DNA of 64,000 bases, taken from positions 7,980-71,979 of the forward strand of contig JAOZQA010000004.1 of assembly GCA_029932465.1 (NCBI GenBank). Direction: 5' to 3'. Positions 6,340 through 30,402 of this stretch are shown here, piece after piece (the first letter of the stretch is position 1; the number at the start of each line of letters is the position of its first letter). The stretch is from Thermoplasmatota archaeon. GTDB lineage: Archaea; Thermoplasmatota; Penumbrarchaeia; Penumbrarchaeales; EX4484-36. The notes under the pieces are model-generated. The model had not been told where the DNA came from. It ran no database searches and worked only from the letters and a program-made list of their open reading frames with translations. The position numbers were made by a program, and so were the translations under genes.

Positions 6340-6355
6340 ATGCGGCCGCAATGGA

Positions 6356-7390: not shown

Positions 7391-7489
7391 GTTATCACCT
7401 CTTCAAACGGACCTTCGGTCTCTCCCTTTGGACCTCCTTCTGTTCGGGGAGAACACGGAGGCGCTTTATGAACAAGTGAGATATAAAAG

Positions 7490-7993: not shown

Positions 7994-8062
7994 AACTACC
8001 TCCCCGGGGAAGAGGTTCAGGAGGTCTACTAGGACGGAGGTGAGGGACAGATCATCACCTCC

Positions 8063-9536: not shown

Positions 9537-9548
9537 AGAAGAACACCT

Positions 9549-9782: not shown

Positions 9783-9846
9783 CCATCACACCTCCTTAAT
9801 GCGGAGCAATCCTCAGGAAAAGGGAACACAAATTAAAAGGTTGTGC

Positions 9847-10053: not shown

Positions 10054-10062
10054 ACAATAACC

Positions 10063-10383: not shown

Positions 10384-10413
10384 TACAATATTTAAAACCT
10401 CTTTTCCGCCCCG

Positions 10414-11397: not shown

Positions 11398-11442
11398 GAA
11401 TGAAGAAAAAGGAGGGGGGTTTTAAATCTTATTATGAACCCC

Positions 11443-12558: not shown

Positions 12559-12592
12559 CTCATCATCTCAATTTTTAAGGCAACCGTGCGTC

Positions 12593-13812: not shown

Positions 13813-13821
13813 GGGCCCACC

Positions 13822-14370: not shown

Positions 14371-14435
14371 TTAAGAGTATAACAATTGATTTATTTAAAC
14401 TCTCCTGAATAACCCCCCCAACGCATGGAAATTCC

Positions 14436-14460
14436 CAAAAGGGTTATTAATAGATGCTCA
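14436..14460 (+). promoter_or_regulatory. TATA-like element (TTATTAATA) about 30 nt upstream of the NMD3 ATG, in a divergent intergenic region shared with nfeD
   Basis: A/T-rich aaagggttattaatagatg at 14440..14458. Confidence 0.3.
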
Positions 14461-14482
14461 TACGGAGGAGCAGGTAACGAAA

Positions 14483-15523
14483 ATGACAGAAGAGAAAATA
14501 GAGCAAGGAACCTGCCTGAGGTGCGGCAGGGTGGCCACTCTGCACAGAGGCCTGTGCATAGACTGCTTCAGAAAAAGCTCCGAGATATTCACTATTCCCG
14601 ATTATATAGATTTAACCGTGTGCCGCTCCTGTGGAGCGCAGCTTAAGGGAAAGCACTGGGAATACGGTGGAGAACTGAAGGACATAATAGAGGACGAGAT
14701 CCACTCATCCCTGGAGGAGCTCTCCGGAGTTGAGGTGTCCTTGGAGGATATAGAGATGCGCAGGGGAGGGGAGGGTTTATATCACGTAGAGGTCAGGGCA
14801 GTGGCGCTCTTCCCCGGGGGTGGTGTGATACCCACCCGGAAGGCTTTGACGGTGAGGGTGAAGAGCTCTCTCTGTCCCCGTTGCAGCAGGATTCATGGCT
14901 CCTATTATGAGGCCATAATACAGGTTAGAGGCAGCGGAAAGGACCTCCTGAGGCAGGAAGAGGCGGTGGATAGGGTACTTGAACGGGTTGACCAGATAGC
15001 CCGGGGAGACCCCATGACCTTTGTCACCAAGCTAGTCAAGGTGAGGGGGGGGTGGGACATCTACGTTGGGAGGAACCAGAGTGCTCGCAGGATCGCCCAG
15101 GAGATGCACAGACTCTATGGGGGAGATTATAAGGTCTCCTCAAAGCTGGTCGGCAGACGGGAGGGGAGAGAGCTGAAACGTTTCACGTACCTCGTCAGGC
15201 TCCCTCCCTGGAGAAGGGGGGATTACCTCCTCAAAGACGGCACTCCTCACAGGATAGAGGGATTTCAGGGCAGGAGGGTAAAGCTAAAGAACATCGAGAC
15301 CCGGCGGGAGGAGAGCGTTGAGATATCCTCTGTTGAGACCCTTGCCCACTACCCCTCAAAGGAGGTTGAAATGGAGGCCACTGTTCTCTACACCAGTGAG
15401 CGAGAGATAGTAATAATGGATCCCGTGAGCTTCGCTGAGGTCAACATCAAAAAGCCCCCGGGGTGGAAGAGAAGAGAAAGCGTCAAAGTGGTTAGGGTAG
15501 ATGGGGGGATATATCTCCTTTAG
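14483..15523 (+). CDS. NMD3-family ribosomal large-subunit export/maturation factor homolog
   Basis: 346 aa. N-terminal zinc-binding CLRCGR...CIDCF...CRSCG...CPRCSR motifs typical of archaeal NMD3. Confidence 0.8.
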   Translation: MTEEKIEQGTCLRCGRVATLHRGLCIDCFRKSSEIFTIPDYIDLTVCRSCGAQLKGKHWEYGGELKDIIEDEIHSSLEELSGVEVSLEDIEMRRGGEGLYHVEVRAVALFPGGGVIPTRKALTVRVKSSLCPRCSRIHGSYYEAIIQVRGSGKDLLRQEEAVDRVLERVDQIARGDPMTFVTKLVKVRGGWDIYVGRNQSARRIAQEMHRLYGGDYKVSSKLVGRREGRELKRFTYLVRLPPWRRGDYLLKDGTPHRIEGFQGRRVKLKNIETRREESVEISSVETLAHYPSKEVEMEATVLYTSEREIVIMDPVSFAEVNIKKPPGWKRRESVKVVRVDGGIYLL

Positions 15524-16389
15524 ACGTAGACCCTGACCTCCGCCGTTATGATGTTCAATACCAAGGAGTCCACGGAGTCTATCCGTAGCGTTAGAAGCTC
15601 CTCTCCCCCCGAGGGGCTAGAGAGGGTGACGTTGTATTCGCTCTCCGTTAAGCCCTCTGCGGAGAGCTCATCCTCAAGATAGCTCACAACCGCAGAACCG
15701 TATCCCTCCGGGAAGGAGATGCTGACCAGAAGGGTCTGACCCCCTTCGAAGTCATAGGTTGTGTGGAAAGTGGTTACGGCCCTCACCTCTATGAGGGCGT
15801 TGGAAGAGGAGCCGTGAGTGGAGCTCTCCCCGTCGAAGGAAACCAGATTCACCTTCAGGGACCTGAGGGTTCCGCCCCCCGGGGCTGGACTGTGGGTGAG
15901 AAATACCTCGGGGGGCGCTTTGAGGACGAGAGAGTCTCCCTGCTTCATCACAATTGCCCCCTGCTGATAGAGCAGGCTGTAGTCCTCGATGTAGCCGTTG
16001 TCCGCGGTGTATAGAATATATCCCACGCCCCTGCCATAGATTGTGCTGCCAGTGGAGTCGGTGACCTCACACTGACCACTAGCGGTAATCACGTCCATGG
16101 AGCCCCACACTCTGCCGGTGCCAAAGAGGGCACCCCCAGGGCTGCCCATGGAGAATACTGAGGAGGAGACCGCTCCCTCAACGCCGAGGACGTTCTGCTC
16201 CTCTATTATGGACCTGAGATTATAAATCTGAGTTACGGTATCCTCCATGTGCCTGCTCTCCACATCCTTTCCCCATGCGGGAAGGTATATCTCCATGACT
16301 GTCCCTACCACTGAGAGGGTTATCGCCAGGAGCATTATGGAGGAGATGACGTTCGTCACGCCTTCATCTCGTCTTACAATCCGCTTCAT
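15520..16389 (-). CDS. Pilin-like protein with an archaeal class III (type IV prepilin-like) signal peptide
   Basis: 289 aa. N-terminus MKRIVRRDEG|VTNVISSIMLLAITLSVVGTVM: basic region, G-V-T cleavage context, then a hydrophobic helix. It is the last gene of the giant-adhesin operon. Confidence 0.65.
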   Translation of the reverse strand: MKRIVRRDEGVTNVISSIMLLAITLSVVGTVMEIYLPAWGKDVESRHMEDTVTQIYNLRSIIEEQNVLGVEGAVSSSVFSMGSPGGALFGTGRVWGSMDVITASGQCEVTDSTGSTIYGRGVGYILYTADNGYIEDYSLLYQQGAIVMKQGDSLVLKAPPEVFLTHSPAPGGGTLRSLKVNLVSFDGESSTHGSSSNALIEVRAVTTFHTTYDFEGGQTLLVSISFPEGYGSAVVSYLEDELSAEGLTESEYNVTLSSPSGGEELLTLRIDSVDSLVLNIITAEVRVYV

Positions 16390-16390
16390 C

Positions 16391-17290
16391 TTACAGCCTC
16401 CTCAGATCTATCTCGATCACGGTGAGGGAGATTCGGACCCCTGTGATGCTGGGCATTTCCATCTCAGCCCCAGTCCCACTGTCAGTGAAGAAGAACTCTC
16501 CTGGATTAGGGTTTGGGGTGGGGTCCACCTCCGCCATCCCTTGGGCCTCTGCCGATCTTTTAAGTTCAAGAAGGGCGAGTCTCCCTAAAGGGCTTCCGCT
16601 AACTAGTTTCAGGTCCCCAGAACCGAGTGTGACATCCTGGGCTGACTTCAATGTGATTGTGATAGAGGCTGTTGTGAATCCTTCCACCTTCTGAAAGTCT
16701 CCAGTCAATGTGACAATCTCCAAAATGAGCCAGGTCTCACCACCCCCGTACTCGATCCTCCACGAAGGCTCTTTCAACATTCCCGTCCCATAGGGATCCA
16801 GGTAGAAGACCCCCCCCGCAGCGTAGGAATAGGAGATGGGGGATGTATAACGGTAGTTAGCTGTGAGGTTCAGATATCCGGCGGATACGGCGTAATTGAC
16901 CTCGTTCAAGAAAATCTCTAGCACCTTCTCCTCCGGTGTAAGCTCTATGCTCCCCACAGCCCTACTTGTGGCTGTGGTGCTTCTTCCCCAGGTACCCAGC
17001 CTCACTGGGAAGCTCATAACATCCCCCTCTGTGCCGTATAGGGAGAGTGTGTCCACTGCTCCGGATATCCTGAGGGCGGTTTCTTCAAGGGAGGCCTGGT
17101 GTACCATCTCCTCCCTGAGGCCATAGTTCTTCCCTGCTACAATAAGGTAACCGCTTGCCACCATGAGGGCGGCGGTTAGGATGAATATTCCTGTGACCAC
17201 AGTGGAGACTCCGTCCACATTCCGCCTAGCACTTCTCAAAGCTCCACCCCCTGGGGGTCGCCATAGGTCTGCATCATTCTCTCCCACCAC
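16391..17290 (-). CDS. Pilin-like protein with an archaeal class III signal peptide
   Basis: 299 aa; contains RRNVDG|VSTVVTGIFILTAALMVASGYLIVAG. The annotated N-terminus overlaps the upstream giant gene by 55 nt, so the real start is probably a downstream alternative start codon. Confidence 0.55.
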   Translation of the reverse strand: MVGENDADLWRPPGGGALRSARRNVDGVSTVVTGIFILTAALMVASGYLIVAGKNYGLREEMVHQASLEETALRISGAVDTLSLYGTEGDVMSFPVRLGTWGRSTTATSRAVGSIELTPEEKVLEIFLNEVNYAVSAGYLNLTANYRYTSPISYSYAAGGVFYLDPYGTGMLKEPSWRIEYGGGETWLILEIVTLTGDFQKVEGFTTASITITLKSAQDVTLGSGDLKLVSGSPLGRLALLELKRSAEAQGMAEVDPTPNPNPGEFFFTDSGTGAEMEMPSITGVRISLTVIEIDLRRL

Positions 17291-20200
17291 TCAAGATAGA
17301 CGGTATCCCCGCAGCACTGCTCTGTGCCGGCATCCCTTGTACTTCCCTCCACACCGGTGAGGAGGGAGACACCATAGACAACTACATCGTCTATAAGAAC
17401 CCCCTTGATGTCGCTTGTGGGGTCCTCGTAGTGATTGTAGCCATCTTCATTTGTGGTGACTACCCTGAACCGGAGTAGGACTACGAACCCCCTCCAAGGG
17501 GTGAGGTCCACGCTCAGCCTGCTTAAAGTTGAGGCCTCAACCCATCCGTTTCCGGAGTCGATTCCCGTCATGCTCTTCCCTGACTCATTGTATTCGGAGC
17601 CCGAGACTCCCCAGCCCCACCTCACACCCAGGGTGATGGCAGTCCATGTGAGACCATTGTCAGCGGATACCTCAACCCTTACACAATCCGGTGGGGCTCC
17701 GGAGAGGCTGTTTATGTTAAACCTGGTGTAGAAAGAGAGGCGAGCCCACCTGGCGTTAGTTAGGTCTATAGGTCTTGTTATGAGGGAGTTGTCTATGCCG
17801 CTTTTAAGGTAATCGTCACCCCCCTCCCCATTATGGTTCCACCAGGCGTGGGTTCCGCTTCTAGACAGTTTTCCGATCTCCTCCCCTACAGCCTCGTAGA
17901 GCTCCCATTTGTCCGTTGCGGAAGCGTTTGCTGGGAGGGAATCAGACCTTGAAACCCTGATTTCAAGATCGTCTATCCACCAGCCGAAGCCTGTCCCCTG
18001 GCCATACTGCTTATAATAGAGCCGTACATATACCTCGTCCCTGGAGCTCTCGGGAACATACGGGAGCAGGTCCACCTTAGCAAACTCCCAGTCGAATGTC
18101 CCGGTTGAAGACTTTCCGTTCCAGCACCACAGGATTCTTCTTCCGAAATCGTCCCTCCAAATCACGGGCTGACCTTCGCTGTCTGTGAGAAGGAGGTTAC
18201 CGCTGTAAGATGTCAGAGGGGTGACATAGAGCCAGTCTATGTCAGAGGTGTTGTCAGGTCCGTCACCATCAGTGTCCACCCCCCTGAAACCCAACATGAC
18301 AACTCCTCCATTTTTGCCCGGCAGTATGTTATATTTATGCCAGAAGGTCAGATACGCGGAAGTGGAGCCAGAGATGGAGAAGGGACCCACTGTAAAGTAC
18401 TTGTCCTCGTTTCTCTCGAATGAACCGCCACCACTCCCACCGCCTCCAGTCATAAATGCCCAAAGGCCTCCCTCTGTGCTCCTACCGTTCACAATGTTCC
18501 TGGCGACCACCTTCCAGAAATATTCTGTATTCTCGTTCAGGGTGTAGGGTAAGCTGTAGTACTTCTCTGTAAGGCCAGAGGCTATGAGAGTCAGCGAGTC
18601 CTGCGAGAGGCCCAGGTAGACGTCATATCTTATATTCTCATTGTTGCCGCCCGGGTCATCACCACCACTCCATGAGAGGGTCAGGGTTGTGGGTACATCG
18701 AGCTCACCGTTTGGAGGATAGGGGTCCACTGGAGGTGTCGGGGCTTCCTCCCCCGGGGCGATCCTCTCTCCGGTGATTCTTATATCGTCTATATACCATC
18801 CCCTTTCCTTCACAGATTCATCCGAAGCGAAGTGGAACGCGATGTATATGTTGACCCCCTCGTAATCGGATGGGATGTTCACCGTGTATTGTCTCCACGT
18901 CCGGGCCCAGCTACTGGTTGAGCTGAATGCACCATCTCCGTTCTCATAGCACAGGGTATTATAGACAGAGGAGTCGCTTCTTATGGTATTGGGGTATCCT
19001 CCATCAGGGACCAGCTTGTGCCATGTCGAGCCATCGGTGGATATCTCCACGATCCCGCCGTCCCATCGGCTTTCTATATCATACCAAGCCCAGAAGGTGA
19101 GTGTGACCGAGGTGTACTGAAGAAGGCTTATCTGCGGGGAAACTAGTCTTACGTTTACCATGTTCCGATAGTTTTTACCGTCCCGAGTGCACCACGAATG
19201 GGAGGAAGAGTGAGACCTTTCGTCACCGATCTCCCATTCACTTGAGGGCTGACCCTGGATTGTCCATCCTATGTTTCCCCCCTCCACATCATCAGAGAAG
19301 ATGGTCTCTGTCTGTCTTGTATCCCCTCTTGTGTCCTCCTTAAAGGGGGAGGAACCTCCCCGGGTAACCTCCCCCCCGGAGACTATCTCCTCGGCTATCT
19401 CGCCGAAGACGTCTGAGAGGTGTGAGGGGTCATATACGTAGTAGTACTTGCCGTTGTTCTCACCACCCCCATTGGAGGAGTGTGCCAAGGCCCACAGGTC
19501 ATACTCAACCCTGTGGTATGAGCGCTCTGTGAGGACATCGTTCGTCTGCCAGTAGGTATTCCACGGGGGCGTGTCGCTATCTTCCTCCTCCGGATAATCC
19601 GGGTCATGATATCCGCTGGAGAGAAGCCCCACAGTGTAGATGGTAAAGGGGGCCATGAGAAGACCCTGACGATCTCCGGCACTGGTTCCAGCACTTGAAC
19701 TATAATAATAGTTCTCATAATATGTGTTCATCCACTGCCCCAGACTATTTGAGGGGTCCTCATAATCGTACCTTCCCGGACCGTATTCAAAATCCCTGTT
19801 GGCCTCACCATCTGTAAACACCAACATATATGGTATTCTCCCGGAGGGGGCAGGGTAAAGTTTACTGGCAGCGGCTCCCACAGTGTCGTAAAGAGGAGTC
19901 CACCCGTTGGCCCATAGTCCATCAATGGTATCGTTTAACGAGGCTTTGTTCTCTGACGTGCAGAAGGTCCAATCAACAAAGAGGTTTGGAGAGTTGGGTC
20001 CTTCGTTAGTGAAAGTATATATGGCGACTCTGTCGTAGGGCGTGAGGTAGCTTATGAACACCTTGGCCGCCTCCTTCAGGCGGTCTATCTTCCGCACCCC
20101 GCCCACTTCCCAGTCCATTGAACCAGAGGTGTCAAGAACCATGACGATATCTAGCGGGTTTCTTGATGTTCCCCCGGGGGGCTCATAGAGTCTGAAAGAC

Positions 20201-23200
20201 CTTGGATGGCTGTAGGAGGTGTTGGTATCCTCGCTCACCCCATAGGAGAGGTCCTCGTCCCAAGAGGATATTACATCGGTGTACGTCTCCATCTGTGGAT
20301 CGTAGAAGTCCAGGGGTGATTCCCCGTTGACCCTCGCCACTACGGATTCGTGGCGGAAATTGGCAGTGCCGTTCTCCATGTCATCGTAGAAGAAGTAGAT
20401 GTTGACGCTCTTTGACGGAGCGTTGTTTATGTAATCAAAAATCTCGTCGTAATTGTTGTAGAAGTCTATGAATACCCTCACCTGTCTTATCCCGGCGAAA
20501 AGAGGGGTCCATATGGCTTCTACGGTGACCTCGTCACCAGGCTCTAAGAACACCGTTGTGCTGTGTATGAGCTTTCTGCCGTCCATAAACCTGACAGTAC
20601 CCCCGCCGGGGACCCCTCCGTAGTTTCCTACGGTTAGAGATAGCACATAACTACCTCCCACTACCGGATGGGGATCGTCTATTGAGATGTCTATGTTCCT
20701 ACCGTAGAGTTCCGGCTGATAGATGACCACCCCAAACCAGTGGAGGAGGAAATAGAAGGCCTCGGTGCTTCTGTGTTCAAGGTATGGAAAGATGCCGGAG
20801 GGAAGAGAGAAGGAGAGATATGCCGTGTGGAAATAAGAAGGACCGGTATTCTCAAGATAGATCGCTACTGGGTCCTCGCCGTCAAGTGTGTCTGTATAGT
20901 AGAGGTAACCCGCTTCGTCTTCCTGAGGTGTGCCGTCTACACTGCCGGAGTCGTCAGGTCTCTTAATAAGTTCAAGTCCTGTTACGGTGGATGTGGGTAT
21001 GACTATCCCATGGGTCTTTACGTCATCTCCTGTGGTGCCGTACAGGGCTGTTCCTGCGTTCTCATTGCCGTAGCCAGCAAGGCCTATGTAATTGTAGAGG
21101 AACTCCCAGTTCACATCTCCATTCTGGTACATTGGATTGGGAGCGATCTCCGGAAGGATGTAATGTCCCACAAGCAGGAAGGCCTCGGAGTAGTTCCCCA
21201 TGTACTCAGACTCACGGTAATCTCCTTTGAGGTATCTCTCGATCTCTATCCTGTCCTCCGCGGTTATGGTCTCAATACCTGAGTAGCCACCACCACCGCT
21301 CTCCCCGCAATTCCAGATGACCATGTTGTATCTTTTCATCGTCTCAACGTCTGGTCCCGTCCCGATCTGGACGTTCTCCCCGTCGAAGACGTTCACAACC
21401 CTATACACCTCATATTGAAGGCCTAGGAGCTCAAGGAAGTGAACAATAGCCCCTGTTGTGTCCTCAAGCATGCCCCACTCAGGGGGCTCCGTGGCACCTC
21501 CGTCGAACCTCCAGTTGTTGGGGTTGTCCTCCTCATAGCCGTTCTCATCCCCATTGGGCCCATAGGTATCATTCCATGAGCCGTCGTCGTCTACGACGAG
21601 GATATTGTTCTGGGCCACCAGGGAGGTGACGGTGGAAGTGGAGTAGGAGATGTCGTTGTTTTCCTCGTTGATTTCCTGTATGATGTGATATGGGTCCACA
21701 ACAGCCCTGAAGGTGTGAAGTCCCACGCTGGTGGCCTTCCACTTTTTGGTAACTACTGTCTCCCCACCCCCTCCAGGAAGGTTCAGAATGTCTCTTGGGT
21801 TGTCCTCAGTAGGGTCCGGGAAATTGGGAGTGATTCTTCTCTCTATACCATCTGGGCCCGTAACGTAGAATTCCACAGAGGTGGAGAGTGTATCGGGCCC
21901 GTTGTTTCTCACGGTGACCCGCACCTCCACGGTGTCCATGAACTTTGGAGGATAGGAACCCTCAACGACCACAAGTTCCATCTTTGATATGGCCAGATCG
22001 TTCCCTATTCTCAGCTCCCAGCGGAACCACTTCATTATTCTCGCCGCCATACTGATTTTCTCGTTCAGATATCTCACGTGGGAGGGGCTCACCGGGAGGT
22101 AGACGGAGCGATAGGCGACCGTTTCACCGCCGGGTGTGGTCTCTTCGTGGGAGTGGTATATGCCATAGGGTTCTTTGACGGGAGCGTTGTAGTCCTGTAC
22201 ATACAGCATCCCCACGGGATCTGACGTGTCAGAGCCGTACTCCAGAGGATAAGTCCATTCGGCGTAGTCGTCGGCTCCTGCAGCGCTGTCATCCATCAGC
22301 ACCGAATAGGAGTCATTCCCTTCCCAGCCTGTTATGGGATTTGAGGGAGTCTCCCCGTAGATAACCCCGGGGAGGTCTTTGTCCACGGCGAAGCGCTTCA
22401 CACCCAGGTAGTTCCTTACGAATATCATAGCGTCCTCCCTTTCGGTGTTATACTTTACAAAAGAGGTAGTGTCTGGCAGAACGTAGTATCCGTTTTCGTC
22501 GGGGGAGATGCTCATGTAATCCTCGTTTAAGCCCTTCAGGACGTTCTCACCCACGATCCAGAGGTATCCTCCGTTGTCCAGGAACTTCATCATTTCCTCC
22601 ACATTCCCACCATATGTAGCGTCAGCGTTGCATGTTAGCGGATTCTCCTCTTTTCCGGTAACCCATATGACAATATCGTAATCCTTCATCTGGGGTGCTC
22701 CCACAGTGGGCGGGTCTACGTATTCGTAGGCGGGAACATCCCTCAGAACCCCTGCATCTGTCATAGCCTGAGCTATGAAGAGCCGGTCCACCTGGACCCC
22801 CGCACCAGTCAAGGATTCTACAACATGGCTGGTGACGTCGTTTTCACTACCGGTCTCCGCCCCGTCATCGTCAACAAGGAGTATGCGGGGTATGATCTGA
22901 AGCGTAAGGGAAGCGTAGTTGTCGGTGGGGTCGTCTCCCTCAAGGGCCCCCTCCTCCTCGCTGGAGAAGACGATTCTCTGAGGCGGAAGGGACTCTCCCC
23001 TCAGGTCATAAGGCAGAACTGTGTAATCCCCGGGGTTAGCGTCCACCGCCATATAGATGGTCAGAATCTTGTCAGGGTTTGCACTTCTAGCGGTGAAAGT
23101 CAGGGATATGGAGACCTGACCTGCCACGGGAATTATGAGGTGCCTTATTTTGCATGTGGGGAAGGTGTAATCGTTCCCGTCCAGATCCTGGCCGTAGAGC

Positions 23201-24435
23201 TCAGCCCACTTCACCTCCTTCCATATTTCATCCCTGTCCGTATTCCCGGGCATGAAATCTGGTGGAGGCGGCCCGGGGTTGAAGTTCTCATAATCCTCCT
23301 TATAATCATCATCCTCCGGGTCGGGGATGTCGTCTATCCAGTTGAAGATCTCACCACCCTCCGTGGTTATGGGCTCCGTGCTAACTACCAGCATCACGTC
23401 ATCGTCATACCCTATGGGTTGATCCCCGAGGTTTTTCACAAATAGAGTGACGGTGACCTCGTCTCCTGTCTTGGGGTAGGTCTTGGAGAGCTGGACATCC
23501 TTGGAGGAGACTACAGGGTTGGGGCCGGATGGCCTCGTTGGAACTATGCTTATTGAAACGTCGAGATTCCTGTAACGGTAGTTGTTGGAGGTTGATATCT
23601 CCCCGGATGTTAAAGGAGTGATCCTGCAGTGCATTTTGTGGATACCTAAGGGGTAGGGCACGGTCCAGCTTGGATAAATGTAGTTGATGGTTTCACCGTA
23701 GGTGAGCTCCCCCGGGGTTGGGTCATCCTCTGGGGTTTGCAGCACACCGTCTCCGACATAGCTCTCCCGGTCGTAGAACTGGACGGTTATGTTATCATGG
23801 GGTACGGGGGCCGTGCCCAGGTTGGTGACAGTAGCCACGAGGTCTAATGGTTCACCCACAAGGACCTCATCGGACCTCTGACCGTATCGCAGGAAGTAGA
23901 ACTCCTCCACGGCGAGGTCAGGAAGGGAGGTGGAGGGAGGCGCCTCCAGGGACTCTGAGAAGACCACAGTTTTCTCCCCGTTAGCCTTCTGGTAGACCAC
24001 CTTCACCTCCAAGGGGAAGGTGGGTGTGGGGGATATGATCTTGCTCCAGGTCTCCCCGGGGCTCCAGAGGTCGTTATCGTCCCAGGAGCCAATACCTGTG
24101 GTGGAATAGTCACAGTCAGAGGCGGAGAAGGGCGACCCAGGGACATCCGCCCCGCTGCCGTCCTTCACAATAATCGTTGTGCGTGAGAGGAGAAGAGAGT
24201 CCCCCGCATTGTTCTCTACAAAAAGGACGAACTGGCCAGAGGGGTCCGTGGTGTAGCCGGAGGAGAGGCTCACGTAGACGCTCTCAACCTCTTTCACGTT
24301 ACCCGCCATGAAGAGGGCAACGGAGGATACAAGCACCACCGCTATGCCGACAAGAAGTACGGTTCCTATGGTCTCAGAAACACCCCGCGTCTTATTTGAT
24401 CTTCTCATACCATTCGCCTCCTTATGAAGCTCCAC
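17236..24435 (-). CDS. Giant (2399 aa) secreted protein with a class III signal peptide, CARDB-like domains, two GATase1-like domains, a vWA domain, an FN3-like domain and three C-terminal lectin/MAM-like jelly-roll domains
   Basis: N-terminus RRSNKTRG|VSETIGTVLLVGIAVVLVSSVALFMAG. Two repeats bear the motif (R/N)ILLVDDDG...YD(I/M)VIW. vWA MIDAS sequence DIVMVLDTSGSM ... LVFTDGEANRD at nt 20156..20121. C-terminal repeats carry W(W/Y)IDD(L/I)(E/R)I motifs. Paralogous to 24422..30328. Confidence 0.85.
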   Translation of the reverse strand: MELHKEANGMRRSNKTRGVSETIGTVLLVGIAVVLVSSVALFMAGNVKEVESVYVSLSSGYTTDPSGQFVLFVENNAGDSLLLSRTTIIVKDGSGADVPGSPFSASDCDYSTTGIGSWDDNDLWSPGETWSKIISPTPTFPLEVKVVYQKANGEKTVVFSESLEAPPSTSLPDLAVEEFYFLRYGQRSDEVLVGEPLDLVATVTNLGTAPVPHDNITVQFYDRESYVGDGVLQTPEDDPTPGELTYGETINYIYPSWTVPYPLGIHKMHCRITPLTSGEISTSNNYRYRNLDVSISIVPTRPSGPNPVVSSKDVQLSKTYPKTGDEVTVTLFVKNLGDQPIGYDDDVMLVVSTEPITTEGGEIFNWIDDIPDPEDDDYKEDYENFNPGPPPPDFMPGNTDRDEIWKEVKWAELYGQDLDGNDYTFPTCKIRHLIIPVAGQVSISLTFTARSANPDKILTIYMAVDANPGDYTVLPYDLRGESLPPQRIVFSSEEEGALEGDDPTDNYASLTLQIIPRILLVDDDGAETGSENDVTSHVVESLTGAGVQVDRLFIAQAMTDAGVLRDVPAYEYVDPPTVGAPQMKDYDIVIWVTGKEENPLTCNADATYGGNVEEMMKFLDNGGYLWIVGENVLKGLNEDYMSISPDENGYYVLPDTTSFVKYNTEREDAMIFVRNYLGVKRFAVDKDLPGVIYGETPSNPITGWEGNDSYSVLMDDSAAGADDYAEWTYPLEYGSDTSDPVGMLYVQDYNAPVKEPYGIYHSHEETTPGGETVAYRSVYLPVSPSHVRYLNEKISMAARIMKWFRWELRIGNDLAISKMELVVVEGSYPPKFMDTVEVRVTVRNNGPDTLSTSVEFYVTGPDGIERRITPNFPDPTEDNPRDILNLPGGGGETVVTKKWKATSVGLHTFRAVVDPYHIIQEINEENNDISYSTSTVTSLVAQNNILVVDDDGSWNDTYGPNGDENGYEEDNPNNWRFDGGATEPPEWGMLEDTTGAIVHFLELLGLQYEVYRVVNVFDGENVQIGTGPDVETMKRYNMVIWNCGESGGGGYSGIETITAEDRIEIERYLKGDYRESEYMGNYSEAFLLVGHYILPEIAPNPMYQNGDVNWEFLYNYIGLAGYGNENAGTALYGTTGDDVKTHGIVIPTSTVTGLELIKRPDDSGSVDGTPQEDEAGYLYYTDTLDGEDPVAIYLENTGPSYFHTAYLSFSLPSGIFPYLEHRSTEAFYFLLHWFGVVIYQPELYGRNIDISIDDPHPVVGGSYVLSLTVGNYGGVPGGGTVRFMDGRKLIHSTTVFLEPGDEVTVEAIWTPLFAGIRQVRVFIDFYNNYDEIFDYINNAPSKSVNIYFFYDDMENGTANFRHESVVARVNGESPLDFYDPQMETYTDVISSWDEDLSYGVSEDTNTSYSHPRSFRLYEPPGGTSRNPLDIVMVLDTSGSMDWEVGGVRKIDRLKEAAKVFISYLTPYDRVAIYTFTNEGPNSPNLFVDWTFCTSENKASLNDTIDGLWANGWTPLYDTVGAAASKLYPAPSGRIPYMLVFTDGEANRDFEYGPGRYDYEDPSNSLGQWMNTYYENYYYSSSAGTSAGDRQGLLMAPFTIYTVGLLSSGYHDPDYPEEEDSDTPPWNTYWQTNDVLTERSYHRVEYDLWALAHSSNGGGENNGKYYYVYDPSHLSDVFGEIAEEIVSGGEVTRGGSSPFKEDTRGDTRQTETIFSDDVEGGNIGWTIQGQPSSEWEIGDERSHSSSHSWCTRDGKNYRNMVNVRLVSPQISLLQYTSVTLTFWAWYDIESRWDGGIVEISTDGSTWHKLVPDGGYPNTIRSDSSVYNTLCYENGDGAFSSTSSWARTWRQYTVNIPSDYEGVNIYIAFHFASDESVKERGWYIDDIRITGERIAPGEEAPTPPVDPYPPNGELDVPTTLTLSWSGGDDPGGNNENIRYDVYLGLSQDSLTLIASGLTEKYYSLPYTLNENTEYFWKVVARNIVNGRSTEGGLWAFMTGGGGSGGGSFERNEDKYFTVGPFSISGSTSAYLTFWHKYNILPGKNGGVVMLGFRGVDTDGDGPDNTSDIDWLYVTPLTSYSGNLLLTDSEGQPVIWRDDFGRRILWCWNGKSSTGTFDWEFAKVDLLPYVPESSRDEVYVRLYYKQYGQGTGFGWWIDDLEIRVSRSDSLPANASATDKWELYEAVGEEIGKLSRSGTHAWWNHNGEGGDDYLKSGIDNSLITRPIDLTNARWARLSFYTRFNINSLSGAPPDCVRVEVSADNGLTWTAITLGVRWGWGVSGSEYNESGKSMTGIDSGNGWVEASTLSRLSVDLTPWRGFVVLLRFRVVTTNEDGYNHYEDPTSDIKGVLIDDVVVYGVSLLTGVEGSTRDAGTEQCCGDTVYLEWWERMMQTYGDPQGVEL

Positions 24436-27400
24436 TTATTACAATATCATCCAGATAGACCCCTTTGAAGAGATCGGGGTCCTCATAATGGTCATATGGC
24501 TTGGGACCCACAAGGGGATAGCCGTTGGTCACCACCCTGAACCTTATATGGACGGTCTTTCCCCTATATGCGGTAAGGTCCCCCTGGAATCGGGTCAGCG
24601 TCTCTGAACTGACCCAATAATTGGCCTCCTCCGCAGTAAGGCCATCATCAGGGATTCCGGTATAGGACTTGCCATCGGCTATACCGTCGGAGAGGTCCCC
24701 CTCCGTTCCCGTTACACCCCATCCAATTCTCACACCATTGTGGAGGGTTCTGAAGCTCTTCCAGTTGTCTGTTGAGATCTCGACCCTCAGGCAGTCGGGC
24801 GGGAACCCAGAGTTGGAGTTTATGTTAAACCGTACGTAGAAGGTGAGACGAGCCCATTTAGCGCTCGTTAAGTCCACTGGCCTTAAATATAAAGCTGCAT
24901 CCGCCCCCGGTTTGAGCCCATAGGTGGGATCCACGAAGGACCAGAAGTGCGAACCGGAGTGAGCTATCACCTCATCCTCGGCCAGATACCACTGATCGGC
25001 TATGGCAGAGGTGGGGGGCTGTGTATCGGATCTGCTGATCCTCACCTCAACATCATCTATAAACCACCCCTCACCCACCCCCCACGTGACAGCCAGGTAG
25101 AGGAACATTATCTTAACATGGCTCCTGCCCCTGAATGGGGTGAGGTCAACGGTCACCCTCTCCCAGTCGTACCTTCCACCTGCGGATACACCGTTGTAGA
25201 CCCATCGCATCTCTCTTCCATAGTCATCGTATCTGTAAGACTCGAGATCCAGGTTTCCACTGTACTGCCCCTGAGGAATGACATATCTATAGCGCCATTC
25301 CGTCCCGTCGTCGGAGGTGCCCACCAGAACTACCCCACCGTTACTGCCCACATCCATCTGATATTTCTGGAAATAAACCAATCTAGCGCTGTTAGCCCCG
25401 AGAAGGGAGAACTCCTCTGTGATGATGTATCTATCCCCGGGCTCCACGCAGGCTGGAGCCCTTGTTCCTCCCCTGCTGTACTGTTCACTATCTGTGGGAG
25501 TCCCAGCGCCGGAGGATCTGGTCAATGTCTGAAGTTTCTTCAGCTCATACGCCACTGTATTGAAGACGCTGAGGAGGGAGTTCTCGTCGGGAGAATAGAA
25601 GTACTTGCCGCCCTGGGAGGTGGTAGCCATCCTCCACAGGTTGTACTCGACGGTTCCCGATTCCACCCCTCCAGTGTAATAGGCGTAGGTATTGATGCTC
25701 TTCTCGGCAGGCTTTGTAGATGTAGATGGGGAGTTGGGTGGGGAGTGATGCTCCAGATTGAGTCCAATGGTAAACACAGGAAGGGGTGCGTTCAGAAGAC
25801 CGTTTCTTGTTGTCGGCGAGGGGAAGGTAACGGTGTACCAGAAGCCATAGGATGAAGCGTCTCCTCCGTACTTCCCGAAATGGCTGGTGTAAGTCACCAC
25901 CTGGCCAAAGCTATGCCAGGGGCACCATCGTTTGCTACCCCTCTCCAGTGTGTTCAGATCGTTGTTATCGTCGGGTTCGGGGGGCTCGCTGTCGTCCCCC
26001 AGACGGTCCACCCCGTCGGAGAGGATAACCACCGCGGGCACGTGTCCGGCGGCGTGGCCGTAATAGGCATAGGAGATCCCCGCCCCCGACATATCCCAGA
26101 TCTGGGTTACCGCTTTAGGGGTCATGGAATCTATCTGGGAGTTTATGTAGGCCCTGCCACTTTCAGTGAGCTGTGTGAAGGAGACATTGTGGACATTCCC
26201 AGACCCTGCATACCACATGAGTGCAACCCTATCCTGGTCGGATAGCTGGGCTACCAGGGCCTTGGCAGCCACCTTGAGCTTTGCTATTGGGTCTCCTGAC
26301 ATTGAAGAGGAGGTGTCCATGCATATTACTACGTCAAGCGGGGGTGGCGGTTCCTGACCTGACCAGAACGAGAAGGAGGCGGAGTGTGAATAGCGGCTAG
26401 TGCTGTTAAAGCCGCTAGCCTCCGACCAATCCTTCACTATGTTGGTATATTGCTCCTGCGTCTCATCCAGGAACTCAAGTGCGTTCTCCCCGTTTATCCT
26501 GACTATTGTGGCTTCGTGCTCCCAACTGCTGGCATCGGTATCCTCCAGATCATCGAAGAAGAAATAGACGGGAACATTGATGAAGGGATTGTTATTCCCC
26601 TCGAAGACTTCCTCTACATCCTGGTAGTAGTCCGCCTTCACCATGATCACCCTCTGGCCAGCGAGGGTGGGAATCCAGGTGGTCTCAACGGTGGCCACTC
26701 CCCCGGGAGGAATGTATATTGTGTCTGTTTTAAGTATGAGGTCCCCGTCGTATAGTCTCACAACGAAGGAGCCACCGGCTCCGCCCAGATTGGCTACCAA
26801 CGTTTTAATAAGAAAAACATCCCCCAGCTGGTGGACAGTCCCCGACACATTGATGTCCACAGCCCTCGATACTATTTCAGGACTCTCCACAGTGAGGTTG
26901 AGGTCTCTGAAGAGCCCAAATAGCATCTCCACAATGCCGTCAGAGTTTGCTGTTCCTATCTGGAGAGGTATGCTTATCAGCTCGGCTAGGTAGCCCTGGT
27001 CTTCGGAGCTGTGAAGAATCCCTAAGGGGGTCTGCCCCGCCTCCCCTACCCCATAGAGGGTAGTGCTAACGCTCTCTTCCCCAAAAAGCGGATTCTCTGC
27101 TCTCTCCTCCACACCTTCCCCGTAGACCTCACGCAAAAATGTCCCCTCAAGTCCATGGAAGGGGAGTAGGTAGCTATCATCCGACGTTCCCGTGATGGTT
27201 GTGTAACCCGTCCTACCTGTGAACGTACCGACCCCCATGTGCCTATACAGGAAGGGGTCTGAGACCGACCCGGGGGCCCCCAAAATATCAGTGAAGAGAC
27301 ACCCGGAGATCACCACCAGTCTGGGAGTTACATTGGTAAGGTAGACGCTTTCCTCATAAGATTTCGTGAGGTACTGGATCAGGTAGTCTCTGTCGTCTGC

Positions 27401-30328
27401 CGTGAGGGTCTCAGGCAGGAGCGGATCTATCTCTTCCTCCGGGAGAACCCAGATGACCGAGGTGTATCTCATCAGGGTCTCTATGTCCGGGCCATCGCTG
27501 AAAAGATAGGCGGAGCCCGAATAGGTGTTCACAACCCTGTAGAGGTCGTATGAATAGCCGTAGAGCTCAAGCTGTTCTGCTATCTTATGGGTGAGGTCCT
27601 CCCGCAGGGCCGAGGGAGGTGGGGCAACTCCTCCTTCAAGGTCCCAGTTGGAAAAGGTCTCGTTCTCCTCCGAGTAGCTCTCATCATCGTCTATAAGTAG
27701 TATTCTCTTCTCGATCACGATTGAGGTTATTGTTGTTGGGGAGTAGGAGAGGTCATTATTGTTCTCGTTCACCTCCTGAAGTATCCTGAAGGGGTCTACC
27801 ACAGCTCTGAAAGTGATCCTGCCCTCTAAGGTGGCTCTCCATGTCTTTGTGCATATCTCCTCCCCTCCGTTCCCCGGGAGGTTAACTATGTCCTGTGGAT
27901 TGTCCACCCCATCGGGATATCTGGAGGGGATTCTCCTCTCGATGTTGTCCTCTCCTATTACGTAGAATATCACCGTTGTGGATACAGCCGTGGGGCCGTT
28001 GTTTCTCACCCATACGCGTATGAGGATATCATCCATGTACTTGGGGGTCTCAACACCCTCGGGCAACTCGATCTCCATCCTTACTATAGCCAGATCATCT
28101 CCTATCTCTATTTCCCAGCCGAACCATTTGAGAACGCTAGCGGCCAGATTAATTCTTTCGTTGAGATAAGTAATAGTTGTATAGTCGAAGAAGCTCCATA
28201 GGATCCTGTAGAAGGGGGTCTCCACCCCCGCCTCTATATAGGTGGAGTCCTCGCCTGCAGGAAGGTCATATGTGAGTCTTCCTGCGGGTAATACTCCATT
28301 GGGAAAATCCCCCTCGTCTCGGTACCCCACTTCGCTGAAAGTGATCTCCTCGTCGGAGGAGAAATTCAGATTCATAAGTCCCTTCTCCGGGTCAGTGACG
28401 TTATCGCCTCTAACCCCGTAATAACGGTCTGCCACCGAAGCGTCAAGATATACACTCTTTAGGTAGGTATAATCGTAAAGGAGCTCCTTCATACCTGCGT
28501 CCACGGTTCCAACGGGAGTGTAACTGCTAAGGTCTAGTATAGAATTATCAAAGGCTCCCTCAAGCACACCCCTTCCAATTATCCATATCTTCTGGTCATT
28601 GTTGAGACAAGCTTCTATGTCAGCAAGGTTGTGGTAGAGCACTGGAGAGGGATTTTCTCCAGCGATCCATATAATAACGTCATACTCTTCTAGGGCGGGA
28701 ACAGGCACTTCGGTGGGCGAGGGGTAATTGAACTTGGGAGCCCATATATATGTCTCCTCTCCCAGAAGCCTTACCTGGGAGGCCACAAAGATTATATCGG
28801 GGGTAATGCCCGCCCCGGAGAGAGCCTCCACAATAATAGTAGTTCTATCGTCGGAGGACCCTGTTGAGGCCCCGTCGTCATCCACAACAAGTATTTTGGG
28901 CGTCACCTGGATGTTTATAAGGTTCAGGTTGTCCTCATCCTTATCCCCGTCAAGGAAAGTGTAGACTTCTTCCGGCGGGGTCCCCAGCTGATCTACTGGC
29001 TGAACGGTGTAGTTGCGCTGGTCGCAATCCACCGCGAAGTAGATGGGAACAATATTGCTTCCCTCAAAGAGCTCTGCCACCCATCGGAACTGGAAAGCGA
29101 TCTTTCCGGAGGCGGGGATCGCAAAATTTCTTATCTTTACTGTTGGGAAGGTGGTATCGTTTCCGTACAGGGATTGCCCGTGAGAGGAGGCCCAATCCTG
29201 AGGGTCCACACCTTCGGGGACCTCCGGGACATCGTCTATCCAGGATAACACTTTCCTGTTCTCTCCCAGATTTAGCTGCTTTATGGGGTACAAGGACATT
29301 ACAAAAAGGAGATGGTGAGATGGTAGAACTGGGGAGGGTCCAAGGTTTTTCACGTAGACCGTTATGGTCACCTCTTCCCCTCTTTTCGGATACCTGTTGC
29401 TGAAAAATATGTCGTCTATTGAGACCGCAGGATTCGGGCCCTGGCCGGGGGAGAAGTACTGCTGTATTGTCACATTGAATTGGTAGGTTCTTTCATTGTT
29501 ATACAGACGTGCCTCCCCTTCAAAGGGCGGCAGGACCCTTGCCAGGAGGGTATGGCTTCCCAGAACGGACGTGGTGAATGACCTTTTCACTAAGGTAATA
29601 CTATGCCCTGGAAGTAGCTGTTCGGGAGGTGTGCCTACAACACCATCTCCGTCTTCGGTGGCTTCCGCAATGGGCATCTTACGGATCAGATTTCCGTCAA
29701 GGTAGAGAAATATCTGCAAGGTGGAGGTCTGAACGGGTACGCCGCCGTTGTTTGAGATAACCATGTATATATCGGCAATGCTATCTTTGACCAGCAATGT
29801 TAGCCTCCTCCCATAGCGCTGAAGGTAGAGGTCCTCCACGGAGAGATCGGCTTTAGTTGCGGATTTAGGTTCCACCATATTGGTGTATCTGTAGAGCACA
29901 CGTCCCCCCCCCTCTCCGGTGTTAAGAACCCTAACATCCACCTTTTCAGCCCCGGGAGGCAGTGATGTCATGCTGTGAGAGTAAGTCTCTCCTATCTCCC
30001 AGAGACTGTCCCCATCCCATACGCCTATTCGCGAGATTAGATATTCGCAATCAGTCCCCTCAAATACATCTCTGGTACCTTCAGTGCTCACTATTATCTG
30101 GATCTTTCCCAAGGGGAGGGGTTTGCCAGCTATATGTGTGATCGTTATGTATTTTACCCCACCGATCTCCACCACCTCTGAGCTGAACCTTTCTATCTCG
30201 AGGACTTCCTTTGTGGGGTGATTGGTGACAAAGATCAAAATGGCTGCACCTGCTATGGTGGATGAAAGTAGCAGAAGTATGGTGCCAAGGGCTTCCGATA
30301 CACCCCAGAATGATACGGACGTGCGCAT
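24422..30328 (-). CDS. Giant (1968 aa) secreted protein with a class III-like signal peptide, CARDB-like domains, two GATase1-like domains, a vWA domain and C-terminal lectin/MAM-like domains (paralog of 17236..24435)
   Basis: N-terminus MRTSVSFWG|VSEALGTILLLLSSTIAGAAILIFV. Repeats PKILVVDDDG...YDVIIWIAG and KRILLIDDDESY...YTSVIWVL. vWA sequence LDVVICMDTSSSMSGD at nt 26338..26300. C-terminal GWFIDDVEVRISRSD and YLDDIVISG. Overlaps the downstream giant gene by 14 nt. Confidence 0.85.
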   Translation of the reverse strand: MRTSVSFWGVSEALGTILLLLSSTIAGAAILIFVTNHPTKEVLEIERFSSEVVEIGGVKYITITHIAGKPLPLGKIQIIVSTEGTRDVFEGTDCEYLISRIGVWDGDSLWEIGETYSHSMTSLPPGAEKVDVRVLNTGEGGGRVLYRYTNMVEPKSATKADLSVEDLYLQRYGRRLTLLVKDSIADIYMVISNNGGVPVQTSTLQIFLYLDGNLIRKMPIAEATEDGDGVVGTPPEQLLPGHSITLVKRSFTTSVLGSHTLLARVLPPFEGEARLYNNERTYQFNVTIQQYFSPGQGPNPAVSIDDIFFSNRYPKRGEEVTITVYVKNLGPSPVLPSHHLLFVMSLYPIKQLNLGENRKVLSWIDDVPEVPEGVDPQDWASSHGQSLYGNDTTFPTVKIRNFAIPASGKIAFQFRWVAELFEGSNIVPIYFAVDCDQRNYTVQPVDQLGTPPEEVYTFLDGDKDEDNLNLINIQVTPKILVVDDDGASTGSSDDRTTIIVEALSGAGITPDIIFVASQVRLLGEETYIWAPKFNYPSPTEVPVPALEEYDVIIWIAGENPSPVLYHNLADIEACLNNDQKIWIIGRGVLEGAFDNSILDLSSYTPVGTVDAGMKELLYDYTYLKSVYLDASVADRYYGVRGDNVTDPEKGLMNLNFSSDEEITFSEVGYRDEGDFPNGVLPAGRLTYDLPAGEDSTYIEAGVETPFYRILWSFFDYTTITYLNERINLAASVLKWFGWEIEIGDDLAIVRMEIELPEGVETPKYMDDILIRVWVRNNGPTAVSTTVIFYVIGEDNIERRIPSRYPDGVDNPQDIVNLPGNGGEEICTKTWRATLEGRITFRAVVDPFRILQEVNENNNDLSYSPTTITSIVIEKRILLIDDDESYSEENETFSNWDLEGGVAPPPSALREDLTHKIAEQLELYGYSYDLYRVVNTYSGSAYLFSDGPDIETLMRYTSVIWVLPEEEIDPLLPETLTADDRDYLIQYLTKSYEESVYLTNVTPRLVVISGCLFTDILGAPGSVSDPFLYRHMGVGTFTGRTGYTTITGTSDDSYLLPFHGLEGTFLREVYGEGVEERAENPLFGEESVSTTLYGVGEAGQTPLGILHSSEDQGYLAELISIPLQIGTANSDGIVEMLFGLFRDLNLTVESPEIVSRAVDINVSGTVHQLGDVFLIKTLVANLGGAGGSFVVRLYDGDLILKTDTIYIPPGGVATVETTWIPTLAGQRVIMVKADYYQDVEEVFEGNNNPFINVPVYFFFDDLEDTDASSWEHEATIVRINGENALEFLDETQEQYTNIVKDWSEASGFNSTSRYSHSASFSFWSGQEPPPPLDVVICMDTSSSMSGDPIAKLKVAAKALVAQLSDQDRVALMWYAGSGNVHNVSFTQLTESGRAYINSQIDSMTPKAVTQIWDMSGAGISYAYYGHAAGHVPAVVILSDGVDRLGDDSEPPEPDDNNDLNTLERGSKRWCPWHSFGQVVTYTSHFGKYGGDASSYGFWYTVTFPSPTTRNGLLNAPLPVFTIGLNLEHHSPPNSPSTSTKPAEKSINTYAYYTGGVESGTVEYNLWRMATTSQGGKYFYSPDENSLLSVFNTVAYELKKLQTLTRSSGAGTPTDSEQYSRGGTRAPACVEPGDRYIITEEFSLLGANSARLVYFQKYQMDVGSNGGVVLVGTSDDGTEWRYRYVIPQGQYSGNLDLESYRYDDYGREMRWVYNGVSAGGRYDWERVTVDLTPFRGRSHVKIMFLYLAVTWGVGEGWFIDDVEVRISRSDTQPPTSAIADQWYLAEDEVIAHSGSHFWSFVDPTYGLKPGADAALYLRPVDLTSAKWARLTFYVRFNINSNSGFPPDCLRVEISTDNWKSFRTLHNGVRIGWGVTGTEGDLSDGIADGKSYTGIPDDGLTAEEANYWVSSETLTRFQGDLTAYRGKTVHIRFRVVTNGYPLVGPKPYDHYEDPDLFKGVYLDDIVISGAS

Positions 30329-30351: not shown

Positions 30352-30372
30352 TTAACTCCGAGGTGTTTATAA
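30352..30372 (-). promoter_or_regulatory. T-tract plus TATA-like box (minus-strand CTTTTTTATAAA) between the J-domain gene stop and the giant-adhesin operon start; probable terminator and promoter
   Basis: Minus-strand reading of 30329..30402: ...cagcatcttttttataaacacctcggag...ATG. The TATA-like element lies about 45 nt upstream of the 30328 start. Confidence 0.4.
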
Positions 30373-30402
30373 AAAAGATGCTGTAGATATCTGATAATTA
30401 TC

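Follow-up and report, generated by a model that had tools for sequence, protein, structure and literature searches.

Giant modular pilin-like proteins of Thermoplasmatota: a predicted four-gene operon of candidate surface adhesins

Introduction

What use does an archaeon make of proteins of some 2,000 residues or more that begin like pilins? The question is raised by a 64,000-nucleotide stretch of DNA from a Thermoplasmatota archaeon (contig JAOZQA010000004.1; the whole stretch is referred to as the window), in which four adjacent, co-directional minus-strand genes within positions 15520-30328 encode two giant multi-domain proteins, named here G1 and G2, and two smaller pilin-like proteins, S1 and S2. 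Thermoplasmatota are abundant and mostly uncultured archaea of sediments and oceans, and to our knowledge their attachment to particles is largely unknown. An initial annotation of the window had proposed that these genes form either an archaeal counterpart of the bacterial PilY1 adhesin system or a bindosome-like set of surface proteins. The computational analysis reported here follows up that proposal.

We conclude, with a probability of roughly 70-75%, that G1, G2, S1 and S2 are exported surface adhesins handled as prepilins. A more specific reading, in which the four genes form one operon for the pilins of a type IV pilus-like surface-display system specific to Thermoplasmatota and their products, giants included, make up its tip or priming complex, has about an even chance of being right. 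The family of G1 and G2 is best classed as an archaeal, giant and multi-module form of the modular-pilin or pilus-adhesin theme.

Two giant paralogs built on a pilin module

The four genes, with the starts favoured by our analysis and lengths in amino acids (aa), are as follows:
24422..30328, minus strand: G1, open reading frame of 1968 aa from ATG 30328, giant modular pilin-like protein
17236..24408, minus strand: G2, 2390 aa from ATG 24408, giant modular pilin-like protein
16391..17239, minus strand: S1, 282 aa from TTG 17239, pilin-like protein
15520..16389, minus strand: S2, 289 aa, probable DUF7289-family pilin-like protein

Four minus-strand open reading frames (ORFs) had been placed here by the initial annotation, and the ORF listing reproduces its coordinates exactly; for G2 and S1 the listed ORFs (17236-24435, 2399 aa, and 16391-17290, 299 aa) are longer than after the revision of their starts described below. 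On alignment G1 and G2 are paralogs of one architecture, as had been proposed, with 30% identity over about 1,958 residues. Both chains run from an N-terminal Pilin_N module through a long spacer of Ig-like CARDB domains and two GATase1/ThuA-fold modules and a vWA domain to C-terminal domains of MAM/Reelin-B type, and their parts are located as follows (a slash marks the predicted cleavage site):
30077..30328, minus strand: G1 class III signal and pilin N-module, MRTSVSFWG/VSEALGTILLLL, residues 1-84, Pilin_N aligning over 9-84
28091..28912, minus strand: G1 GATase1/ThuA-fold module 1, residues 473-746, apparently non-catalytic
26855..27721, minus strand: G1 GATase1/ThuA-fold module 2, residues 870-1158, aligning with module 1 in a two-module profile, fold assigned by homology
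25493..26341, minus strand: G1 vWA domain, about residues 1330-1612, with a large insertion; Pfam VWA 37.3 bits over residues 1332-1441
24425..25411, minus strand: two MAM/Reelin-B-like domains of G1, about residues 1640-1968, with GWFIDD and VYLDD motifs and a weak InhA-like_MAM match
24160..24408, minus strand: G2 class III signal and pilin N-module, MRRSNKTRG/VSETIGTVLLVGIAVVL, Pilin_N above the gathering score
21994..22902, minus strand: G2 GATase1/ThuA-fold module 1, residues 503-805, homologous to G1 module 1
20689..21621, minus strand: G2 GATase1/ThuA-fold module 2, residues 930-1240
19339..20166, minus strand: G2 vWA domain, about residues 1415-1690; Pfam VWA_2 35.2 and VWA 28.4 bits
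17374..19203, minus strand: G2 C-terminal part, about residues 1736-2345, with a MAM-like domain first and a Reelin-B-like domain last, and between them an intervening segment followed by a second W(W)IDD region

The Pfam model Pilin_N (PF07790; gathering threshold 25.2) scores 36.5 bits in G2, above threshold, and 20.4 bits in G1, below it. CARDB is matched with 56.7 and 53.7 bits in the two giants, and the VWA and VWA_2 models are both above threshold in each. The predicted metal ion-dependent adhesion site (MIDAS; DxSxS...T...D) is intact in both proteins, its residues being read from the alignment as DTSSS...VTQ...SDG in G1 and DTSGS...WTP...TDG in G2; a PDB sequence search with the vWA segment gave no match. 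At the C-terminus, G2 carries InhA-like_MAM (63 bits, in two stretches) and Reelin_subrepeat-B, whose intervening segment and second W(W)IDD region were assigned by visual inspection, without a model match. The MAM match of G1 is weak (14.5 bits), but its C-terminus aligns with that of G2 and with C-termini of the family in which MAM and Reelin_subrepeat-B score above threshold. The CARDB domains and the vWA domains with intact MIDAS of the initial annotation are therefore upheld in both giants; its C-terminal MAM-like domains are clear in G2 and rest, in G1, on the alignment.

Two GATase1-like modules per giant had also been named. An AlphaFold2 model built from a 40-sequence alignment does have the GATase1 fold (a 6-sequence alignment gave a predicted local distance difference test score of 42 and was unusable), and its nearest structural neighbours include the non-catalytic ThuA-like, IFT52 and OST48 domains; profiles of the modules against the PDB returned nothing significant, the best being 2gk3 (E 0.19). 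Solely L, V, W, G and G are invariant in the 40 sequences. No conserved Cys or His, and no catalytic Cys-His-Glu triad, was found in this alignment. Because neither Cys nor His is conserved, the modules are read as non-catalytic, ThuA/GIFT-like domains in which catalysis is unlikely, and a catalytic role was rejected as a candidate function.

Judged by their domain matches, G1 and G2 are modular pilins in the sense of Raynaud et al. (2021), in that each joins a pilin module to at least one functional domain that is not pilus-specific. Pfam matched neither the TadE nor the PilC/PilY1 family in G1 or G2, and no substrate-binding-protein family was matched in any scan of the giants or of 21 relatives.

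A class III signal before a near-invariant mature N-terminus

All four proteins begin with a short polar or basic leader, a G at position -1 and one N-terminal hydrophobic helix of about 20 residues, so that the class III-type signals proposed for the set are recovered throughout, with Pilin_N above threshold in G2. The predicted cleavage sites of the giants are FWG/VSEALGTILLLL in G1 and TRG/VSETIGTVLLVG in G2. The first two signals had been interchanged in the initial annotation: SFWG/VSEALG belongs to the 1968-aa protein and RRSNKTRG/VSETIG to the 2399-aa protein. Residue -2 is W in G1, R in G2, D in S1 and E in S2.

The N-termini of the 149 best matches of an exhaustive profile search (see below) were surveyed. 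A class III-like N-terminus is present in 86 of them; many of the rest appear to be fragmentary or truncated at the start. These 86 giants share the mature consensus VSEVVGTILxLxITVVLFSS; position -1 is G in 63 and A in 23, and position +3 is acidic in 85 (E in 79, D in 6). The +3 codons of G1 and G2 lie at about 30294-30296 and 24374-24376 of the window. In the S1 and S2 partners, the acidic +3 residue is replaced by N or T. The N-termini of the giants match the archaeal Pilin_N and arch_flag_Nterm models, not the bacterial methylation motif IPR012902 by which the published set of modular pilins was defined; the giants are thus an archaeal counterpart of that set and do not belong to it.

This mature N-terminus is far more conserved than the rest of the giants, which share 20-30% identity. 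As it is near-invariant and includes an acidic +3, its constraint suggests helix-helix or machine contacts rather than mere membrane anchoring. The acidic residue recalls the conserved Glu5 of bacterial pilins and, by analogy, may be its counterpart. A conserved H-domain is likewise known from PilA1-6 of Haloferax (PMC4371748).

A family widespread in Thermoplasmatota

Word-indexed protein searches with G2, with an 8-sequence alignment and with S2 returned solely near-identical proteins and unrelated MAM/CARDB proteins, and on their own would suggest a near-orphan family. That reading was overturned by an exhaustive HMMER profile search, which yielded 124 clusters (at 50% identity) at E<=1e-30 and 307 at E<=1e-10. 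Members are mostly 1,800-2,800 aa long, and all those with a named source come from Thermoplasmatota archaea. Their public names are generic without exception ('VWA', 'PA14 domain-containing protein', 'CARDB domain-containing protein'); one example is 'hypothetical protein AYK23_03505' of Ca. Proteinoplasmatales SG8-5. On these profile matches the family is real, conserved and widespread in Thermoplasmatota.

A Pfam census of 21 diverse members found CARDB in all 21, Pilin_N in 20 (best E 4.7e-15), VWA_2 in 17, InhA-like_MAM in 10 and Reelin-B in 7, with occasional Laminin_G_3, PA14, GLEYA and Big_5; no catalytic-domain family was matched in these members. Literature searches retrieved no published description of the giant family, nor of pilin-like proteins of 2,000-2,800 residues with such an architecture.

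Two smaller partners

S1 begins MRSARRNVDG/VSTVVTGIFILTAAL, with a predicted cleavage site VDG/VSTVVTGIFIL, and S2 begins MKRIVRRDEG/VTNVISSIMLLAITL, with DEG/VTNVISSIMLL. The window copy of S2 scores 22.3 bits against DUF7289 (PF23960), below the gathering score of 27 bits. All nine of its orthologs match the model at E<=0.01 (best E 1e-15), two of them with 52.9 and 37.5 bits, and a 99%-identical protein (P0010) has a precomputed PF23960 match; by this homology S2 is probably a DUF7289 pilin-like protein. When the S2 family profile was compared with the PDB, the best hit was to 8tob, a type IV pilin of bacteria, in its long alpha1 helix, with a non-significant E of 0.06. A tblastn search with an S2 ortholog against plasmids, aimed at annotated haloarchaeal pil operons, gave no match. 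For S1 no Pfam family was matched. It shows weak similarity to S2, as well as to S-type proteins from four related loci (numbered here L003, L004, L008 and L014), and on that similarity is a distant relative of S2.

A probable, tightly coupled operon

The initial annotation had the two giant genes overlapping by 14 nt. A GGAGG Shine-Dalgarno-like site lies 8 nt upstream of ATG 24408, which is most likely the start of G2, and the overlap then gives way to a 13-nt spacer after the G1 stop; the 1-nt gap reported between S1 and S2 holds. The start of S1 is most likely TTG 17239, which overlaps the G2 stop codon as TTGA and is preceded by GGTGGAG. At the 3' end of the operon, S2 and a convergent NMD3 gene meet stop-to-stop. 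Upstream of G1, one element was read from the sequence:
30366..30376, minus strand: TATA-box-like element TTTTTTATAAA, 37 nt upstream of the G1 start

This element is a probable archaeal promoter of the operon. As the starts are so tightly coupled (the 13-nt spacer, the TTGA overlap and the 1-nt gap), the layout suggests a single transcript and about equal amounts of the G1, G2, S1 and S2 products.

Directly upstream of the TATA-box-like element lies a further gene of possible relevance:
30403..33165, minus strand: J-domain membrane protein of 920 aa, possible accessory gene; Pfam DnaJ 70.9 bits over residues 843-909

Its product has transmembrane helices at residues 19-37 and 728-746, a sequon-rich Ig/PKD-like ectodomain between them, and a C-terminal, cytoplasmic J-domain with an intact HPD motif. 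One speculation is that it might bring Hsp70 to the membrane and so assist in exporting the 250-kDa preproteins.

Gene context and pilus machinery in relatives

The four-protein set is conserved across relatives at about 30% identity. In the clade of the window (the window itself, L002, L003, L008 and L014), the order is J-domain protein, one or two giants, S1, S2 and convergent NMD3. A J-domain gene of this type stands directly upstream of the giants in L002, L003, L008 and L014, and in L003, L008 and L014 the giants are again followed by S1 and S2; the contig of L002 ends inside the second giant and that of L003 right after S2. L008 and L014 carry a single giant in otherwise identical synteny (J protein, giant, S1, S2, NMD3). 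Three giants stand in tandem in L015 (6491-21338). No pilus machinery lies near the giants of this clade.

The link to such machinery comes from two distant relatives, L004 and L019, which belong to separate 50%-identity clusters. There, two giants, an S1-like class III protein of 550 aa and a DUF7289 protein are followed directly by a T2SSE ATPase gene and two T2SSF genes. The ATPase has PilB3_N and PilB3_C domains and is of PilB3 type, and the T2SSF genes correspond to TadC/PilC. Two further loci (L018 and L020) begin in the same way, and contig ends cut off the remainder; across this second clade the class III protein measures 430-554 aa. This gene string ties the giant family, by context, to type IV pilus machinery.

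The pair of giants is not always alike. A second giant without a vWA match occurs in L004 (6462-12791), L007, L009, L010 and L020; in L004 the aligned region holds no vWA-like sequence of any kind, and in one giant of L003 (4577-11380) the MIDAS is degenerate. Judging from these differences, the giant pair may be functionally asymmetric in such loci. Nine small divergent genes beside the giants of L009, and genes upstream in L007, were considered as possible small pilins and rejected, none having a class III N-terminus. On the Proteinoplasmatales-like contig L010, the giant pair is preceded, at a distance of about 1.5 kb, by a gene for a KaiC/RecA-type 'ATPase' (PF06745; 7770-8483). A regulatory role in archaeal type IV pili has been proposed for ATPases of the KaiC family (PMC4858521).

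Comparison with known systems

By function the closest known analogues of the giants are the bacterial modular pilins, and by lineage the pilus systems of euryarchaeal clade 2. Pilin-like proteins of TadG type, which carry a vWA domain, are relevant as well. In bacteria, pilins onto which a vWA or lectin module has been grafted are well established as adhesins, and their predicted position is at the filament tip (PMC8179133). In Streptococcus sanguinis, PilB joins a pilin to vWA and PilC joins a pilin to a ConA-like lectin (Raynaud et al. 2021, PMC8179133; PMC9934059); like G1 and G2, they fuse a class III signal and pilin module to modules that are not pilus-specific, including a vWA with a DxSxS...T...D MIDAS and lectin-type jelly-roll modules. 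Like the giants, they are operon-encoded minor subunits, predicted to lie at the filament tip and to serve directly as adhesins. The differences are that the N-module of the giants is archaeal Pilin_N rather than IPR012902, the giants are several times larger and form a paralogous pair, vWA and jelly-roll domains stand in one chain, and the CARDB and GATase1-fold spacer has no counterpart in the streptococcal proteins. The bacterial survey of modular pilins used the bacterial N-terminal signature only, and its most domain-rich protein has 860 residues (PMC8179133).

The initial annotation regarded a vWA domain on a prepilin-processed protein as the hallmark of PilY1. This comparison fails, as PilY1 'is not a pilin' (PMC8179133). 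The PilY1/PilC proteins of Gram-negative bacteria are likewise large vWA adhesins (P. aeruginosa PilY1), thought to be presented at the tip with minor pilins; they are attached through a beta-propeller (IPR008707) at the C-terminus, which docks on minor pilins, whereas the giants carry a pilin module of their own, and Pfam matched no PilC/PilY1 beta-propeller in G1, G2 or the 21 relatives. TadG/CpaL of bacterial Tad pili also combine a pilin-like N-terminus with vWA within a pilus operon (PMC4858521), but are bacterial and small and lack CARDB, GATase1-like and MAM domains, and their TadE-type N-terminus was not detected in the giants.

Among archaea, the pilins of clade 2 systems often have their genes apart from the ATPase/TadC module, a pair of tadC genes is frequent, and a FlaFind-positive, all-beta minor pilin of 250-550 aa, arCOG02911, is common to these systems (PMC4858521). 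The clade includes the PilB3/PilC3 and PilB4/PilC4 loci of Haloferax (Makarova et al. 2016, PMC4858521). L004 and L019 resemble it in their PilB3-type ATPase and two tadC genes, and arCOG02911 resembles S1, S2 and the 430-554-aa S proteins in size and type. A split platform has also been described for a Thermoplasmatales pilus (PMC12448462). By contrast, pilins of 2,000 aa with vWA, MAM or GATase1-like modules are not described for clade 2 systems, and vWA appears in that survey solely in cytoplasmic regulators (ArnB type) or by analogy with TadG (PMC4858521). Clade 1 loci (Methanococci/Thermococci, Epd-type) each encode two large adhesin-like DUF2341 proteins with minor pilins, an ATPase and two TadC, and a tip position has been proposed for them (PMC4858521); the domains here are vWA, CARDB and MAM instead, the machinery clade and the taxa differ, and no homology was detected. 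The statement in the initial annotation that archaeal pilins described so far are small is accordingly true in part: the exceptions are bindosome subunits, the 'relatively large pilins' of the Haloferax PilB4 locus, the 250-550-aa arCOG02911 proteins and the large predicted adhesins of clade 1.

A proposed mechanism and its alternatives

The fit with the clade 2 literature and with that on bacterial modular pilins is the reason for reading G1, G2, S1 and S2 as a pilin set. In the mechanism we propose, the proteins would be inserted by Sec and cut at G/VSE by a PibD-type prepilin peptidase, and their conserved alpha1 helices would be drawn out of the membrane by a PilB3-like ATPase and a TadC platform whose genes lie elsewhere in the genome. 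The four proteins would then assemble at roughly 1:1:1:1 into a tip or priming complex, like bacterial minor-pilin tip complexes, with S1 and S2 as the minor pilins and the vWA and jelly-roll domains of the giants as the adhesive end. A position in the tip or priming complex is favoured over one in the filament body because the operon seems designed for equimolar output and because the giants are so bulky. The complex would cap a filament of a major pilin encoded elsewhere, or of S2 itself. Held off the cell, the vWA and jelly-roll modules would bind proteins via the MIDAS metal, and glycans, so that the cell would become attached to particles or to other cells.

Several observations weigh against this mechanism. 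ATPase and TadC genes are within reach in 2 of about 18 related loci, and most of the others have none within 10 kb; loci outside the two clades described above carry two or three giants, and within that distance no partner or machinery gene was detected. As the initial annotation had noted, the 64-kb window itself holds no T2SSE ATPase, T2SSF platform or A24 prepilin peptidase (Pfam scans of all substantial ORFs), and about 3.6 kb past one side of it contain housekeeping genes only, with no machinery or small major pilin. A scan of the window for further class III-type ORFs that might encode a major pilin gave none that is convincing, nor does any operon of the family include a typical small major pilin; a long filament is thus hypothetical. 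The charge at -2, described as critical for recognition by the archaeal prepilin peptidase (PMC4371748), is present in 45 of the 86 giants, and G1 has W there. Seven of the 86 homologs, including both giants of L003, end in a transmembrane helix and basic tail, which is hard to reconcile with a position at the pilus tip unless the anchor is removed; in the L003 giants (4577-11380 and 11384-17818) a low-complexity linker precedes this helix, and G1 and G2 of the window have no such tail. Lastly, heavy glycosylation is usual in archaeal pilins, and sequons (N-x-S/T) number 0.35-0.56 per 100 residues in G1, G2, S1 and S2, similar to cytoplasmic proteins, as against 1.7-2.2 in the other predicted surface proteins of the window (376-5103, 30403-33165 and 34928-37933).

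The sparse linkage to machinery, the lack of a major pilin, the -2 charge, the C-terminal helices and the few sequons keep two other explanations alive. The one that survives best, though rather unlikely, is a bindosome-like or pseudopilus-like assembly: the proteins would be cleaved by PibD and handled by PilB/TadC to form a short structure with S1 and S2 as its stem and the giants as its working parts, and there would be no long pilus and no separate major pilin. The operons of L004 and L019 agree with this, as they comprise four class III proteins, the ATPase and two TadC but no small major pilin, and the Sulfolobus bindosome (Bas) offers a precedent, in which a PilB/PilC pair and small pilin-like proteins place large class III proteins at the surface (PMC4371748; PMC4858521). 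However, the absence of a major pilin from an operon is weak evidence, since euryarchaeal major pilins are commonly stand-alone genes elsewhere (PMC4858521). Bindosome subunits, moreover, are substrate-binding proteins for ATP-binding cassette transporters; the giants carry adhesin-type modules, and, as stated above, no such binding domain was matched in them.

A doubtful elaboration would make of the system a self-contained, pilus-derived adhesion organelle without a conventional major pilin. Here the four proteins, a dedicated PilB3-like ATPase and a split TadC platform would suffice to extract, display and perhaps retract pilins of 2,000-2,800 residues, the largest known; the acidic +3 would take the role of Glu5, and in the clade of the window the J-protein would recruit Hsp70 for export.

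It is less probable still that G1, G2, S1 and S2 are plain envelope proteins. Their N-terminal helix would then be an anchor, the giants would serve as glycocalyx or adhesins of an archaeon without an S-layer, independently of any pilus machine, and the DUF7289 neighbours would be unrelated surface proteins. Most related loci do lack nearby ATPase or TadC genes, half of the family has no charged -2, and some homologs possess the additional C-terminal anchor. Yet an anchor alone would leave unexplained a near-invariant mature N-terminus with an acidic +3 in a membrane-proximal segment, the conservation of the four-gene set with its DUF7289 partners, and the PilB3-type ATPase and TadC genes in one gene string with this set in two distant relatives; the low sequon density, compared with other surface proteins of the window, also speaks against it. 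Finally, surface-tethered enzymes (amidotransferases, peptidases or glycosidases, with the GATase1-like or other regions as catalytic domains) serving degradation rather than adhesion are very improbable, for in spite of the GATase1-like fold, the large extracellular peptidases encoded by the organism (such as C25 at 376-5103) and the occurrence of MAM-like domains in InhA and M36 peptidases, the 21 members lack catalytic-domain families, the modules lack conserved Cys or His, and their structural neighbours include non-catalytic domains.

Implications

If the reading of G1, G2, S1 and S2 as the adhesin-bearing pilin set of a pilus-like system is right, the bacterial principle of the 'modular pilin' would extend to archaea, and the upper size of pilin-like proteins would rise about three-fold over the 860-residue protein of the bacterial survey. 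For the adhesive end of the pili of euryarchaeal clade 2, the giants would offer concrete candidates, and the parallel between their conserved acidic +3 and bacterial Glu5 could be put to the test. The family comprises more than 100 sequence clusters, and in public records these carry only domain-based labels. A mechanical question is also raised, namely how a pilus machine, or Sec together with a membrane J-protein, handles subunits of 250 kDa.

Other genes of the window

The window is a segment of archaeal chromosome with genes for NMD3, tRNA-intron endonuclease, LonB, PheRS beta and FtsY, as well as pyruvoyl arginine decarboxylase and pyruvate:ferredoxin oxidoreductase, and its nearest public relatives are metagenome-assembled genomes of Thermoplasmata. 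A secreted-type C25 peptidase (gingipain-like, 1575 aa) is encoded at 376-5103 on the plus strand. Its chain includes a propeptide, PKD domains and, at the C-terminus, an Ig-like domain, and its presence suggests that the organism lives by degrading protein outside the cell. On the minus strand, a 1001-aa CarboxypepD_reg/PKD/CARDB surface protein (34928-37933) adjoins a 'choice-of-anchor T' family protein (38190-39134; NCBIfam 267 bits), and the giant genes of L001, L007 and L008 likewise have large proteins of CarboxypepD_reg/PKD type encoded near them. Three SPFH/Band 7 paralogs followed by an NfeD gene lie at 11443-14370 (minus strand), between NMD3 and a TerB/ENT-like protein, and an SPFH/Band 7-NfeD cluster is present in L021 too.

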